64,000 nucleotides of DNA from Polyangiaceae bacterium (GTDB lineage: Bacteria > Myxococcota_A > Polyangia > Polyangiales > Polyangiaceae): positions 283,628 through 347,627 of the forward strand of contig JBILLK010000011.1 in the NCBI GenBank assembly GCA_044376115.1. Reading direction: 5' to 3'. Position numbers: made by a program. Position 1 is the first letter of the stretch, and each line of letters begins with the position of its first letter. Positions 27,001 through 45,000 of the stretch are shown piece by piece.

Positions 27001-30000
27001 TACCTGGCGTTGGTCGGCGATACCGCGGACGGCTATCCCGGAATCACCGGCTTTGGGAAGAAGAGCGCCGCGGTCTTGCTGAGGGAGTTCGGCTCGCTGG
27101 AGGCGGTGCCACAAACCGTGGGCGCTTGGCCCAAAGAGCTGCGCGGCGCTGAGCGCCTGATCGAGGCCCTCATCTCCAATTGGGAGCATGCCCTGCTCTT
27201 CAAGCGGCTCGCGACGCTCCGCCGCGACGTACCGATGGCTGAAACGAGCCAGGCGCTATTGTGGAAGGGAGCGCTGCCAAGCTTTCGTCAGACCGCGGAG
27301 AGGCTCGGCTTTCCCGACCTGTGCGAGCGAATCCCGCGCTGGCAGTGACCCCGATGGGCCGCGCGCTCAGTGATTCCAAGCCTCACGCACCATCTTCAAA
27401 AAGCTGCGCTGGTCAGCCACCCAATCGTCGACGTCGAAGCGCGCCTCTCCCGCGGAGTGAAGCGTCAGCTCATCCGCGAGGATCTCGCGCTCTCCCTGGA
27501 CCGTTTGCGGATGCAGCAGCTCGTCCACCACGCTCAGGCGGTTGAAGGCCGCGTTGCGCCGAAGCCGGCCTGCAAGCGTTGGTTGCCACGAAAGCACCTG
27601 CGGTTCGGCGGTCTCAACATCGAGTCGCTTCGAACCAAAGCGCGGGATGGTGATGCCGGAGATGCGCTGAATGGCGAGCGCCGCGTCATCGGCGTAGCCT
27701 TTGAGCAGCTCCACCGTGCCCGGCTCGACGTCTTCGAGCAGGCGCTTGTCGAGCACCTTGATGACCGCGAACAGGTCTTGCACGTGCGGCGCGTGACCGA
27801 AGAAGCCCACATCGCGATAGCGTTTGGTCAGCTCGGCCAGCTTCCAGACCAGTTCGTGGTCGGCCAAGTTGCCGATGATCGAAAGCCCGCGCAACACTCT
27901 CCGTGCCGTTGCTTCGTCTCGCATCGCGAGAGCTCGCGGCGCGAGTTCCAAGAGGATCAGCCGGCCTCGACTTTCTCCATGTAGCGCGAGCACCAATCCC
28001 TGCGTCGCGCGCACGATGGGCCTGGTTTCGGCGTCGCGGCCGTTGAGTGCTTCCAACATCATCGAAGACTTCGCGTTGCAGGTCGCCAGCGTCGCCAGTT
28101 CGGCCACCGTGGGATCAGGGTGGGTGAGCAGAGGCAGCATCGCGCCCGGTTGGAAGTAGCGTCGTCGGATCGCCGTCTGCAGCGCGACCACCATCAACTC
28201 TTTTCGGACATCCCCGCCCAGCAGCCCGCGGAGCCGATCATTGATCGCCGCCGAGGTCCCCAGCGAGAGCGCTTCAACGTAGGCTGGGAACACCTGCGGA
28301 TCAGCCGTTTTTAGCCCCATCTCAACCCACAGCAAGGCCGTGTCCGACGGTAGACACGAAAGGACGAAGGCGAAGGTGAAGGCGCGTCCACGATCGGGAA
28401 ACGACCACTCGGTGGCGTAGCCGTAAAGCGCCTCCGCGAGGTTCAACCGCGCTCGGCCTTCGACCACGGGGCGCGCGGTCGAGGTGAGCGCATCGAGGCA
28501 CGCAAGCAGCCGCTTCTCGAACTCCTCGGCGGTGATCCAAGGCTCGTGCTCGAAGCAGCGACGGAGCATCGAAAACGGCCCGATGTCCTCCATTGCCTCC
28601 CGCGCCAAGGTCTCCAACATCATCCGTTCGCGCTGCGTTCCACCGCTGCTCTTGCCAGGATGCTCGCGGCGAATGGCGGTCACGATCGATTGGTGGTCGT
28701 CGTTGGCTTCGTTCTCGGGATCATCGTCTGCCGGATCCGGCTCGCTCTCGGGGGCACCAAAAAACCGGGGCGCCGGCACCTGGATCCCGGGCTGGCAGGC
28801 TGGAGTGCCGTTGCTCGCGAGAAAGACGTCGAAGTCGGCGATCCGACGCAGGCTTTGCGGCGCTCGCCCGGCGGCGTCCGATTCGACGACCTGGTCGATC
28901 GCGCTCGACAGCAGCGCCACGAGAAATGCCTCCGCGTCCTGAAGCGACTCGCGCACCGTCGCGACGGTCACCTGCTCGACGCTCGCCTTCACCAGCTCGC
29001 GGGCCCTGCGAAGATGGGCCACCCAGTCTTCATCGGCGTCTTGTCCGCCGCGGAACTCCGAAAGTTCGGTGAGCGCCTGCCGAAGTGATTGGTCGACTGA
29101 AGACCCTTCGAACCCGCGCCCAGCGGTGGAAAGCCTCAACAGAATGTCTACCAACTCCTCCGCGAGGAGTTCGGCCCGTTCCTGGACATCCTTCATTCCC
29201 GAGGAACTCATTCTTCATTCCTCGCTACGTGAAAGAGCCCTCGCTCCTTACCGTCAGAAGCCGTCACGATGGCCACGCTCGAACCAGCACCGAAACCCAA
29301 GGTGAGCCCAAGCGTCCCGATCACGAGCAACAGCGCTCCGCTGGCTGCGCCCACGTCACCAAAATCTCTCGGTACGTTCTGAATGATGGTCTTCTCTGGA
29401 TCGATCGTCGCAGGGTTGCGCATCGCGGCGTAGGTCCATTCCTTTACGCGATGTCGCTCACCGTTGAGGTCTGTGAGCACCCACGGGATCGGGTGCGGCA
29501 GTCTGGGATCACGGAGCAGCTTGGTGAAGCAGGCTGCGGTCGGCGGCCCCTCGAGTTCCTGCTCACCGGTCGCGACCAAGGTGATGGTCGCGAGTCGGCG
29601 TACCTCGGCTGGGACCTTGCGAAGCTTCGGTGACACACACACGAACGCTGCTGCTTCGCCTGGGATAAAGCCGTTGGCCGAGCGCTCCGAGAGCAACCGG
29701 AAGCCGGTATCGAGCGTCGCAATGCGCGCGGCATCGTAGTAGGAGTCGACGCCGCCGATGATGACGCGAATGTCGCCGTAGAGTTGGGCGCGCCCGAGTA
29801 GCGCAGCGAAACCGGCTCGTCCGAGTCGCACCACCGCCGACCGATCGTCGAGCGAGAGGTTCACAGCCTTCGCTAAATCGAAAAGAAGTCGGCTCGCGAT
29901 GCGCTCGTCCTCTCCTTCGTAAAGCTCTGGCAACGACAACAGCAAGATCGTCTTCTCCGAGCGAAGCTGCGGAGGTGCGGACGAAAGCACCTCTTCGAGC

Positions 30001-42000: not shown

Positions 42001-45000
42001 TGCCCTCGGGGAGAACGCCGCCAACCTCGATCGGCTCGTCGCCCAGGAGCGGCGTCTTCGAGTGAAGACCAGGCGCGGCCCAGCTGTGGTGCGCTACCTG
42101 AAAGTCGAGCGGACGAATGGGGAGGCGCTCTTCCTCCCAGGCCTTGTCACAGGTCCCCTTGCGCGATTGCCTCGGCTCCCAGTTCTCCCAAATGGGCGCG
42201 AAGCAAGCGTGCGCCGGGTGGGACTTCTCTTCCGGCCGCAGCGGATCGTAGATGGGCTCGAGCTGGGGAGCCGGGTGGCCGACGTGATAGACCTTGTCTT
42301 TGCCAAACCCTCTTCCGATGTGGTTCTCAGGACAGAGGTTGCTCTCGTGATCCTTGCCCCCGTAGCAGAGGTCGTAGCGAAGCGGCGTTGGGCCAAGCGC
42401 GCCTACGTCTGTGGTTGTAATTCCAGTGAGAGCGTTCTTGTAGACAGCCGGACCGCCGATTTGGACGATTTTGCGCACCGTCCCAACTTGCAGCCAAGCG
42501 AGCGCCCGATTTTTTTCCTTGGCTTCGCGCGTTAGGGCGGGGTAAGCGGTCCCTACCAGGCCGATGTCGGTTCCCGTCTTCTCCTCGACTAAGTCGCTGG
42601 GGAACCGCAAGGAGCCCTGCTCACCTACGGACGAAATCCGTATGGGGCGGAACCCGAGCCTCACTTCGCCTTGGGCGCTCAGGCGGAAAGCGAGCTTGGC
42701 GATGACGGTGCAGACGTCGTACCCGAGCCGATCGGTGAGCAGGTGGCACTGCACCGTCGCGTAGCTTCTGTTCTCGAGTCGTTGGTTGAAGTCCATCGCG
42801 TGCCTTGAGTCCTCAAGATACGTGACGCTCGCCTAACGGATCCCGTGAATTCCTCGCCGAATTGCGCTTTTTTCTTGTGAAATGAAGGGGATCCAGGATC
42901 CACCACGACCCTGCATACATGTGTGTTTCGGAGCTTCGGCGGGGAGGGGAGCTTGGCTATCCAGCAAGATACCTACATTAGATTACAGCGGGCTCTTGAC
43001 CCATGGTCAACGCTAACTGGTTGATGCTCCTCAGCTGTTTGTCGCCTCCATTTCGCGTGAAACGGTGTCAGCGTAATTCCGCCTCTAACGGATAGCGATT
43101 TCAGTGTGAGTCCGTGTGGTTTTGCAATGACAACGAAATCAGGCGTTTGCGAAAGTTCATAACGCTGTTGACATGCGGTCAATAGTCAAGGATCCGCGGC
43201 AGCCACGCGAAGTGGCGTTCACGAGTTCTTTTCTGCGGTCCTTGGTTGACGTAGCCCTCTCAAAACCATGAAGCACCGCCCGCGCCTGTCTGCCCATGTG
43301 TTGCCCAGGATCTACGCAGCTGGTCAGAGTTCGTACGTGGTGCTGTACGACACCGAAGCGCTGCGCTCGCACCCCGTGTCTCGCCGCGCGTGGAGCTGTA
43401 TCTCTGCGATGGATGGCACGCGCGACGTCGAAGGTCTTACCGCGTTCCTCAAGGCCCGTGGGACGGAGGCAAGCGCTGAAGAGATCGCCGGGTTCATCGC
43501 CGAACTTGAAAGTCAGTGCTTGGTCGAGGAAGGCGTGGGCGCGCTTCGAGCCTCGGTTACCGAGGAGAGCTCGAGTGACCTCGAGCGACGACTAGAGCCG
43601 CTTCCTCGCTACGCGCTCGAGTGCGATGGCGCAGGTTCATGTTGTCGCTTCTATCCGTCGATCGCGTTCAGTCCTCATGACGTCGCGAAGGCGCGCGCGC
43701 ATTGTCCAGACGTTGAAGACAGCGGTCAGGATGAGCGGCGGGTCTTCGTCCCGCTGATCGGGGTGGAGTCGCCGATGCGAGCCGTTGCTCTTCGCGATGG
43801 GCGATGCACCTATCTCGAAGCGGACGGCGCATGCCTCATTCATAAGCAGGCAGGCGCAGCCGCCAAACCGATCGGGTGCAACCTCTATCCTTCACGCTTC
43901 GTCGATGCGGGGCAAAGCGTGCGCGTGCTGCCCCATCTCGAGTGCGCCTGCGTGTTTCGAAGTGCGGCCGCTCCTGCTGCCACGGATCCAATTCCGCAGA
44001 CCGTGCGAGATCTGCCGCTCGGTGCGGCGGTGGAGCGGCTCGAGAGTCCCGTCATTCTCACGGCGACGCTGGGTGCGTCTTTGGCCGAGGTGCAGGTCGT
44101 ATTCGACGCCTTGAGCGAGCTCTCGTGCGCCGATTGCGTGGGTGCGTTTCTTCAGATCGCTCGTCAGCTCAACGCGTCGCTTTCGGCCGAGGCGATGGCC
44201 GCGACGGTTCAGAATGCTGAAGGCGCGAAGGCGTTCGAGCTGCAGCTTTTCGAGGCTGCGCTCGATTCGCTCGAGCGCAGGGTGTTGCCGCTTACCAGGG
44301 AGGAATGGCGGTCGCCAAAGGACCTGGTGCTCGTCACCGCCAACGCCCTGCTCATGGCGATCGATGTGCTGAAGCAAGGCTTGGCGGAGCTGCTAGAGGG
44401 CCCCGGCGTGTTTGCGGCGGATGAAGCGTTCTACTTCCGCGTTCAGATGTTTGGTCTGGGGCTCTGTGCTCGCAGCGGCACTCGTTCGAGCCGGGTGCTC
44501 GCCTTCGATAGGGCCTTTCGGCTTCTACTCGGTCGCGCGTTGGGCGTGGTCGCGGTGTTGGCCGAGCTAGGTGACCCCGCGTTCAAGTGCCCGCTGAGTT
44601 TGGTCGAGGCCGCGATGCGAGGGTACGGCCTTGGCGTGTACGTGCGCGAACTCGAGCCTGCGATCGAAGCTGCCTACGCCGCGCAAGATGGGCCGACGGC
44701 GAGCTAGGCTCGTCAATCTTTGCTGAAGTAATTCTCGCCCTGGTACGCGCCGGTGCGCTCCTTCTCGAGCTGCATCAGCACATCATTGAGCAGCGTCGAA
44801 GCGCCAAAGCGGAACAAGTCGGGGCTGAGCCAATCATCGCCCAGCGTCTCTTTGACCATCACGAGATAGTGAAGGGCTTGTTTTGCCGTGCGAATGCCGC
44901 CCGCGGGCTTCATGCCGATCTTCTTGCCGGTGGCGTAGTAGAAATCGCGAATCGCCTCGAGCATGACCAGCGTCACGGGCGGTGTCGCGGCCGGTTGAAT

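Follow-up and report, generated by a model that had tools for sequence, protein, structure and literature searches.

Three adjacent, highly diverged vgrG genes of a Polyangiaceae bacterium, here called alpha, beta and gamma, very probably encode three different protomers of one VgrG spike of the T6SS, with a 1:1:1 composition and a fixed cyclic order of chains. The genes lie within the window, the 64,000-nucleotide stretch of contig DNA analysed here, and the reading draws on six features obtained by computation: a constant gene order, separate clades for the gene positions, a stagger between the chains, directional covariation between them, matched helix length, and retention of the three genes together.

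Gene content and chain identity

An ORF scan placed the three vgrG genes in tandem behind a DUF2169 gene, all four on the minus strand and separated by 14 nt (DUF2169-alpha), 10 nt (alpha-beta) and 29 nt (beta-gamma). Searches of the bacterium's own genome with tblastn matched alpha, beta and gamma to the genes at the same positions of a second operon on contig C92 at 56.9, 56.6 and 52.7% identity over 610, 748 and 738 aa, confirming the survey's finding of such a trio with positional orthologs 53-57% identical. The strong divergence within the operon also stands, with pairs at 27.0-30.1% rather than the 24-30% first given, and a third triplet on contig C48 is 26.8-34.3% identical to the window VgrGs. 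The operon had been taken to hold eight genes, those downstream of the trio being unannotated; nine are present (Table 1), with g7 resembling DUF2169 proteins, g8 resembling PRK06147 below the cut-off and orthologs of g6 being Tox-PAAR-like.

All three chains exceed the NCBIfam VgrG cut-offs TIGR03361 and TIGR01646 and combine a gp27-like head, a gp5 OB fold and a beta-helix in one polypeptide, as VgrG (TssI) proteins do, with the full gp27 head kept in each according to Pfam. The AlphaFold2 monomer model of beta (pLDDT 87.5) shows strands at 8-residue intervals between about residues 502 and 695, and its best Foldseek match is VgrG1 4mtk (E 3e-34). The proteins are predicted to trimerise and to be secreted by the T6SS. 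Contig C18 carries the one Hcp match of the genome and also its one full TssC match. The vgrG-like ORFs number 51 with fragments included, slightly below the 53 Phage_GPD genes counted previously; dozens of further vgrG products might be available to mix into a spike.

For the remaining genes, g5 gave no Pfam match and its orthologs score weakly for SnoaL/DUF4440 (E 0.1-0.2), so that its position in the operon is what makes it a candidate adaptor or immunity protein. The match of g8 to NF004798 spans its full length at a score below the curated cut-off. Profile searches with g9 found no direct family match, and the protein shares two collinear patches (pairwise E 1e-4) with a TIGR02270-like protein of locus L164, making it probably a divergent HEAT-repeat protein of that type. 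Rfam matched nothing near the operon. Contigs from RNA libraries of related strains cover pieces of the alpha, beta and gamma genes in shares of 0.06-0.07 with possible DNA carry-over, and are therefore no proof of expression.

Table 1. Features of the vgrG operon, with positions counted along the window
Feature	Position	Strand	Basis
TvpA / DUF2169 PAAR chaperone, 347 aa, operon gene 1	41753..42796	-	PF09937 E 4e-52; 51% to C92 ortholog
VgrG alpha (position 1), 925 aa	38961..41738	-	TIGR03361 394 bits; position-1 clade
Gly-rich insertion of ~180 aa within alpha beta-helix, ~residues 590-775, limits approximate	39414..39971	-	MAFFT alignment
Alpha octapeptide repeats 1-13, residues 484-587; region of covariation test	39978..40289	-	
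VgrG beta (position 2), 747 aa	36707..38950	-	TIGR03361 329 bits
Beta octapeptide repeats 1-13, residues 496-599; region of covariation test	37154..37465	-	
VgrG gamma (position 3), 736 aa	34467..36677	-	TIGR03361 354 bits; family-1 position-3 clade, support 0.999
Gamma octapeptide repeats 1-13, residues 483-586; region of covariation test	34920..35231	-	
g5, 269 aa (264 from next ATG), conserved in family-1 operons	33661..34470	-	47% to C92
g6, 612 aa, putative PAAR-like (DUF4150) tip domain at the N-terminus, followed by a part with helices and beta-sheet	31778..33616	-	
g7, 480 aa, second, divergent DUF2169-like protein	30209..31651	-	PF09937 E 3e-10, partial; orthologs E 4e-24, 3e-18
g8, 334 aa, TvpD-like (PRK06147) putative co-chaperone	29208..30212	-	NF004798 E 6e-46, 157 bits, under 342 cut-off
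g9, 614 aa	27367..29211	-	4-nt overlap with g8; 36% to C92 counterpart

Distribution and conservation of order

Many soil and freshwater myxobacteria carry such an adjacent, highly diverged vgrG trio. Beta is matched in 75 of the 383 genomes of the family, spread over 26 of its 89 genera rather than the single genus first proposed, and the middle gene of the C48 triplet in 94 of the 383 (31 of 89 genera), the named records with matches including Polyangium, Chondromyces, Byssovorax and Labilithrix. Loci chosen by similarity to the middle genes yielded 140 non-redundant triplets from the family and one neighbouring family, which were aligned with hmmalign. The alpha-beta-gamma order described by the survey was kept throughout, no position swap being seen in the tree of 139 triplets; position-3 chains split into three clades (75, 62 and 2), and the position-1 clade has a support of only 0.775. 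A comparison made by hand found TssC in 91 of the 94 genomes with a C48-type middle gene against 204 of 383 overall. Phage_GPD genes number exactly three in each of four small genomes (G227, G230, G231 and G074), which are 93-100% complete and also contain TssC and TssF; these genomes retain the third vgrG though it is unlinked from the other two. Locus L122 has alpha beside a single chimeric beta/gamma ORF.

Stagger, helix length and covariation between chains

In the published geometry, octapeptides form a three-start intertwined helix (PMC3004832) in which strands alternate, one from each monomer (bioRxiv 2024.12.20.629533); judging from these known structures, neighbours at +8 should sit on different chains, octapeptide k stacking on k+1 of the neighbouring chain. 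Each chain of the trio has a 24-residue period, offset by one repeat from chain to chain, and this period of three is absent from 33 single VgrGs. In the MAFFT alignment, alpha and gamma receive gaps of 8 and 16 residues where the helix starts and make them up again where it ends, and lag-one repeat similarity favours the order 1>2>3 in 123 of 140 triplets by identity and in 129 by BLOSUM62. The anchor-to-anchor length of position-2 chains is 211-214 residues in 112 of the 115 measurable cases, against 19-23 repeats counted by hand in eight single-lineage VgrGs. The C-terminal anchor pattern fails in 131 of 140 position-1 and 75 of 140 position-3 chains, so that the length for position 1 rests on the alignment of three triplets.

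Covariation was scored as APC-corrected mutual information over helix repeats 2-12 of the 140 triplets (Neff 73), the window triplet being represented by L051 (96/99/99% identical). The three strongest diagonals all lie at +8 and together close a single directed cycle: 2>3 (z 1.79), 3>1 (1.77) and 1>2 (1.57). Next come the reverse pairs at +16 (1.04-1.21) and then the same chain at +24 (0.79-0.94), while the same chain at +8 scores 0.46-0.48 and the reverse order at +8 only 0.31-0.35, over a background with a mean of -0.04, an SD of 0.21 and a maximum of 0.58. The pattern recurs within each of the two large families, the forward, reverse and same-chain scores being 1.34, 0.31 and 0.36 in family 1 (75 triplets) and 0.98, 0.14 and 0.47 in family 2 (62 triplets). 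The analysis further distinguishes three face profiles, one for each chain. Directional covariation between chains is not expected of separate homotrimers and supports a single spike, in agreement with the heterotrimer of fixed order put forward by the survey.

A proposed single ordered spike and its tip

Contacts in the proposed spike would run from octapeptide k of alpha through k+1 of beta and k+2 of gamma back to k+3 of alpha. Because the number of strands is the same in all chains, these would end level and form one pseudo-symmetric platform, which could hold a single PAAR-like tip protein, g6. Each of the five family-1 operons examined has one PAAR-like tip gene. The g6 orthologs of L059, L084 and L056, all three of those tested, exceed the cut-off of PF13665; the window g6 and its C92 copy fall below it, yet align with these orthologs, the PAAR-like domain of the window protein being about 45 aa shorter. 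By itself the window g6 gives PF05488 at an E of only 0.18, its predicted structure is poor (pLDDT 49.6), that model returned nothing with Foldseek at E <= 0.001 or VIA-align at Z >= 8, and an atlas search yielded only clusters without names. The gene likely encodes the effector carried on the tip. TvpA and the TvpD-like protein would act as chaperones of its product, in line with known Tvp systems, before the host's T6SS fired the spike.

The survey had further proposed three distinct cargo-docking ends. This part does not survive, given helices matched in length, the single PAAR-like gene and the lack of Pfam-detectable C-terminal effector domains in the three window VgrGs. The asymmetry is instead one of three different faces and of a loop borne by some chains; the Gly-rich insertion of alpha is missing from Polyangium L059 and from L237.

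That the heterotrimer is obligate is plausible. In its full form this idea, towards which the balance tips slightly, describes a sequence-programmed ABC triple-stranded beta-helix in which one chain alone, or the wrong order, would give no working spike, with three different faces and a large loop on a single chain. The trio would then be the only T6SS spike of some Polyangiales lineages, so that the threefold axis of the machine would be broken by design.

Alternative explanations

A softer, overlapping version, tentative and on present evidence doubtful, has the ordered 1:1:1 form dominant while homotrimers or mixtures with other VgrGs also work. Covariation reports the dominant contact rather than exclusivity, and the same-chain +8 score (0.47) lies about 2.4 SD over background, so that some homo-assembly may occur; moreover, the chimera of L122 may function with two genes, and mixed spikes have been proposed in other genera, as set out below. 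The 27-30% inter-chain identity, the distinct faces and the genomes with three vgrG genes only suggest strong specialisation instead.

It is very unlikely that the signal is historical, left by the triplication of a 24-periodic ancestor and by compensating indels of 8 and 16 residues, with shared phylogeny or gene conversion between neighbours then mimicking covariation. The alignment does treat the stagger as indels, related sequences are not independent, and shuffling partners within families lowered the forward score from 1.59 to 0.49 +- 0.04 (maximum of 25 shuffles 0.57), while partners swapped in from nearest relatives gave 0.81; an inherited pattern therefore explains part of it. True partners nonetheless score twice as high as nearest-neighbour swaps, lag 0, at which gene conversion or simple homology would be expected to show up, reaches only 0.30-0.34, and the 3>1 pair matches the pairs of adjacent genes in strength. 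A symmetric homotrimer, moreover, has no need of the 24-residue period.

Three independent homotrimeric spikes, their gene order kept by plain co-inheritance, appear very unlikely. Each gene encodes a complete VgrG, the solved VgrG entries compared list one VgrG sequence each, VgrG1 and VgrG2 of Serratia apparently cannot assemble into heterotrimers (PMC4924876), and same-chain +8 covariation is slightly over background. Homotrimers nevertheless predict the top signal at that place and no preferred cyclic order, the opposite of the cross-chain 1.6-1.8 found, and leave unexplained one PAAR-like gene for three spikes, the fixed helix length and the retention of an unlinked third gene.

It is most improbable that one or two chains are TvpC-like assembly templates replaced before firing, as the VgrG-mimicking TvpC trimer is in Tvp classes II and III (PMC13373197), the heterotrimer being an intermediate: family-1 operons do have a TvpD-like gene with no separate TvpC-like gene nearby, but all three chains keep the gp27 head, the three interfaces covary equally, and a small ORF resembling TvpC (judged by eye, with no family match) accompanies the triplet in L164 and L245. 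An eCIS spike appears unlikely too, PF04984 (Phage_sheath_1), the one sheath family searched, being unmatched in this genome, which is 96% complete.

Comparison with known systems

P. aeruginosa VgrG1 (4mtk/4uhv), Salmonella VgrS (9mlp), 6sjl and T4 gp27-gp5 have the same gp27 head, OB fold and octapeptide triple beta-helix; in contrast to the one VgrG sequence of each VgrG entry, the window trio has three chains 27-30% identical, with a staggered 24-residue phase and directional cross-chain covariation. Among Tvp systems, class II, as in the P. aeruginosa vgrG1b cluster with TvpC/DUF6484, TvpA/DUF2169, TvpD/PRK06147 and a DUF4150 PAAR effector (PMC13373197), shares with the window operon the DUF2169 gene and a single tip gene of DUF4150 type next to vgrG; its PRK06147 gene has a counterpart in g8 on a match short of the cut-off. 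In place of a single vgrG gene the window operon has three, and it carries a further DUF2169-like gene. A stand-alone DUF6484 gene is missing from it, the 30 PF20093 matches of the genome being brief segments of long frames that lie at vgrG loci; TvpC-like candidates occur on contigs C43 and C57. The class III markers, pentapeptide-repeat TvpB and DUF3540 TvpC, had no Pfam match in the nine operon proteins. For Myxococcota, vgrG1b-like clusters beside COMMD-like genes (PMC13392464) also include DUF2169, PAAR and VgrG-like genes in Sorangium and Polyangium; the model given in section 10 of that paper joins a homotrimer to three single accessory chains, and vgrG triplets go unmentioned in that section.

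In the obligate Hcp2-Hcp3 heterohexamer of Bacteroidota (PMC13035841), as far as the accessible account describes it, diverged paralogs have likewise taken the place of a T6SS homo-oligomer; it is a tube ring of two subunit types, whereas the window trio would be a spike of three types with intertwined chains. Spikes mixing VgrG paralogs have been proposed for Vibrio cholerae, Aeromonas dhakensis SSU and Chromobacterium violaceum; in the available portions of these reports they derive from genetics or co-IP with no fixed order, the Aeromonas need concerns several effectors rather than a heterotrimer, and the Chromobacterium VgrGs are highly similar, unlike the conserved cassette with sequence-encoded order described here. 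Whether VgrG paralogs co-assemble, and how chains are chosen, has so far been debated on the basis of genetics and co-IP, with no defined case to work on. The cassette supplies one whose predicted chain order and register can be tested directly in the cultured genera Polyangium, Chondromyces and Sorangium. If the proposal is true, the cassette would provide an example from nature of a pseudo-symmetric triple beta-helix, of relevance to T6SS assembly and protein design, with 140 natural versions from which the A-B-C order rules of an intertwined fibre could be derived, and the +8 cross-chain test can be used on other tandem spike or fibre paralogs.

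Organisation of the vgrG-triplet operon

The vgrG-triplet operon comprises nine genes, one more than the survey's finding had counted, each with a counterpart in the same order in the operon on contig C92 of the same genome, and its GC content (0.60-0.63) is slightly lower than that of its flanks (~0.63-0.67). Operon genes 2-4, encoding alpha, beta and gamma at positions 1, 2 and 3 of the triplet, each specify a complete VgrG; identity is 27-30% among the three and 57, 57 and 53% to their positional counterparts on C92. Gene 1 encodes a DUF2169 protein (TvpA) and g7 a second DUF2169-like protein, while g8 is PRK06147-like (TvpD) with a score below the cut-off and g9 is weakly similar to TIGR02270-like proteins. 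Orthologs of the PAAR-like tip gene g6 in three loci of relatives (L059, L084, L056) exceed the Tox-PAAR-like cut-off and can be aligned with g6, whose tip domain is ~45 residues shorter than theirs; all five family-1 operons examined carry one such tip gene. The triplet on contig C48 is accompanied by a DUF2169 gene and a PRK06147-like gene, and no adjoining PAAR-like gene was found there.

Further open reading frames were observed in two loci of relatives. ORFs of ~640 aa lie 5' of family-2 and outgroup triplets (L164:443-2347, L245:3510-5477), the C-terminal half being PRK06147-like and the N-terminal half without assignment. A small ORF directly after position 3 (L164:10674-11255, L245:12539-13081) gave no family match and by eye resembles a TvpC-type OB fold with a short prism; contigs C43 and C57 of the genome under study (G000) carry relatives of it.

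This genome contains 51 vgrG-like ORFs, fragments included, together with one Hcp match and one full TssC match, both on C18, and no match to Phage_sheath_1. Other neighbouring vgrG genes (G000:C8:11624-20770, C14:166118-169943, C94:239918-244997) fall outside the three positional clades, and vgrG genes broken into two ORFs on C72, C79 and C49, with stops within a C72 match, are either pseudogenes or assembly errors.

Features of the window and position-3 genes kept apart from the 1-2 pair in other genomes
Feature	Location	Strand	Remark
vgrG-triplet operon	window 42796 to 27367	minus	nine genes, tight spacing
c-di-GMP-I riboswitch	window 10998-11090	minus	40.7 bits, above gathering score
tRNA gene	window 8678-8758	minus	
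Position-3 gene	G230:C185:6554-13986 (L218); G227:C70; G231:C147; G074:C19		inverted or unlinked from 1-2 pair, kept

Positional clades and distribution

Retrieval, mostly by similarity to a middle gene, gave 264 loci with some redundancy, which together with the window contained runs of three vgrG ORFs (195), two (34) and four (6) as well as 47 singles; among the rows listed, runs of four and short runs are mostly associated with split ORFs or contig ends. Selecting only uncut ORFs of at least 690 aa in runs of exactly three, and dropping near-duplicates, yielded 140 triplets, the window triplet being represented by that of L051 (96/99/99% identical). A FastTree phylogeny was built from 483 sequences, namely 66 non-triplet genes and 139 of the 140 triplets, two having the same name. 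It places position 1 in a single clade (support 0.775), position 2 in another (0.921, together with an additional gene on a short contig) and position 3 in three clades of 75, 62 and 2. None of the genes of the 139 triplets falls in another position's clade, and 63 of the 66 non-triplet genes form a clade of their own. The window and C92 triplets belong to family 1 and the C48 triplet to family 2, the two triplet subfamilies. One run of three vgrG genes, interrupted by a gap of 530 nt, is divergent (L046:9274-16748, G006:C5); the isolated vgrG gene of L046 has a long branch near position 1.

The arrangement had been thought restricted to one genus, which no longer holds: beta is matched at E <= 1e-85 in 75 of 383 family genomes (26 of 89 genera), and its profile matches five other families of the order, frequently as adjoining pairs. 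The C48 middle gene is matched at E <= 1e-95 in 94 of the 383 genomes (31 genera). By hand comparison, TssC is present in 91 of these 94 genomes versus 204 of 383 overall, two unpublished genomes being counted in this tally alone; about half of the TssC genomes have no C48-middle-gene match, and the triplet is thus not universal. TssC matches are apparently of two types, covering model positions 1-301 (with ~495-aa frames) or 2-301, and by eye the former predominates among genomes with a triplet, a possible link to one T6SS subtype.

Co-retention of position 3 was checked in a non-random sample of four genomes with positions 1-2 but no adjoining third gene, plus G131. The missing gene lies elsewhere in the genome in G227 (59%), G230 (the query itself) and G231 (56%), and G074 has, 2.8 kb from tssF, a candidate with a weaker match (37%). 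These four have exactly three Phage_GPD genes, G131 has its triplet and one more, and all five have TssC and TssF.

Stagger and covariation along the needle

Octapeptides build the gp5/VgrG needle, which is described as a three-start intertwined beta-helix whose strands alternate between monomers (PMC3004832; bioRxiv 2024.12.20.629533). By geometry, repeat k therefore stacks on repeat k+1 of the neighbouring chain, a contact seen inside one sequence in a homotrimer and between genes, in one cyclic direction, in an ordered heterotrimer. Repeats were counted from the conserved A-x-K-D anchor, and repeats 2-12 were analysed. Scored by identity, similarity at lag one is best for the order 1>2>3 in 123 of the 140 triplets, for the same chain in 13 and for the reverse in 4; with BLOSUM62 the counts are 129, 7 and 4. 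Reverse pairing is best at lag two (130 by identity, 136 by BLOSUM62) and same-chain pairing at lag three (119 and 129). Each triplet chain has a 24-residue period. The 33 of 66 single vgrG genes with a recognised anchor peak at lag two and lack this period. The three faces have different profiles, with glycine at repeat position 2 in 82%, 36% and 42%.

In three triplets, MAFFT independently places gap residues at the helix start, 8 for alpha and 16 for gamma, and returns them at its end, so that the stagger spans the helix with equal strand number. Of the 115 position-2 chains that could be measured from anchor to anchor, 112 have a length of 211-214; at position 3 the length is 211-215 in 49 of 65 chains, and the remaining 16 have a large insertion. 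Eight VgrGs of the single-gene lineage, with single-gene context known for two, have 19, 20, 21, 21, 21, 22, 23 and 23 repeats by hand count. Many family-1 triplets have a Gly-rich insertion in alpha, and in family 2 it occurs at position 3; some triplets lack it and others have one in two chains. The AlphaFold2 monomer of beta has strands every eight residues from ~502 to 695.

Covariation over the same repeats was calculated as APC-corrected mutual information across the 140 triplets (Neff 73). The top diagonals are all forward at +8, one repeat on (2>3 1.79, 3>1 1.77, 1>2 1.57), followed by reverse pairs at +16 and the same chain at +24, a series that is a ladder up one face. Same-chain +8 (0.46-0.48), reverse +8 (0.31-0.35) and lag 0 (0.30-0.34) are weaker; the off-register background has a mean of -0.04, an SD of 0.21 and a maximum of 0.58. 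Recoding in a reduced alphabet gives forward scores of 1.59 overall, 1.34 for family 1 and 0.98 for family 2. The overall score falls to 0.49 +- 0.04 after within-family partner shuffles (n=25) and to 0.62-0.82 with partners from nearest relatives. The forward signal is in part an inherited pattern.

Proposed assembly of the spike

Judged from sequence patterns, an ordered 1:1:1 alpha-beta-gamma heterotrimer is very probably the main product, and the odds lean slightly towards its being strictly obligate. The heterotrimer of the survey's finding, in a fixed order, is supported by the directional +8 cross-chain covariation; its three separate cargo ends find no support. Separate homotrimers of each chain would place the +8 contact within one sequence, where covariation does stand ~2.4 SD above background, and for this reason they are only disfavoured. 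In one relative (L122:9524-12454), a single ORF comes after alpha: its first part is beta, and it continues in frame as a gamma-like anchor and helix, with g5- and g6-like genes next. It represents a real fusion or a collapse in the assembly.

From gene content and the account in PMC13373197, a single PAAR-like tip protein would cap the heterotrimer, TvpA and the TvpD-like protein would serve as chaperones of this tip protein, and the host T6SS would fire the spike. One likely advantage is asymmetry: a single chain could carry a loop, and partners would meet distinct faces.

Comparison with known systems

Mixed VgrG spikes have been proposed for V. cholerae (PMC3166118), for C. violaceum (bioRxiv 2022.04.29.490089) and for A. 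dhakensis, where the requirement concerns effectors and not a heterotrimer (PMC8668125). For P. aeruginosa the matter was left undecided (PMC3069435), a study of Serratia argues against such spikes (PMC4924876), and a review depicts them (PMC10433429). No conserved vgrG triplet or ordered heterotrimer in Myxococcota was found in the literature searched, most subscription papers lying outside it, and the term 'heterotrim' is absent from a 2026 review (PMC13584744). The ordered heterotrimer predicted here would be new within that literature, although triplets might appear among the Myxococcota clusters covered by the PMC13373197 appendix and by the synteny maps in PMC13392464. The operon resembles the gene set of the Tvp systems, VgrG/PAAR accessory systems, as outlined in PMC13373197, but differs in having three vgrG genes and in lacking a separate nearby gene for TvpC. 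The nearest analogue of the proposed triplet spike is the obligate Hcp heterohexamer (PMC13035841).
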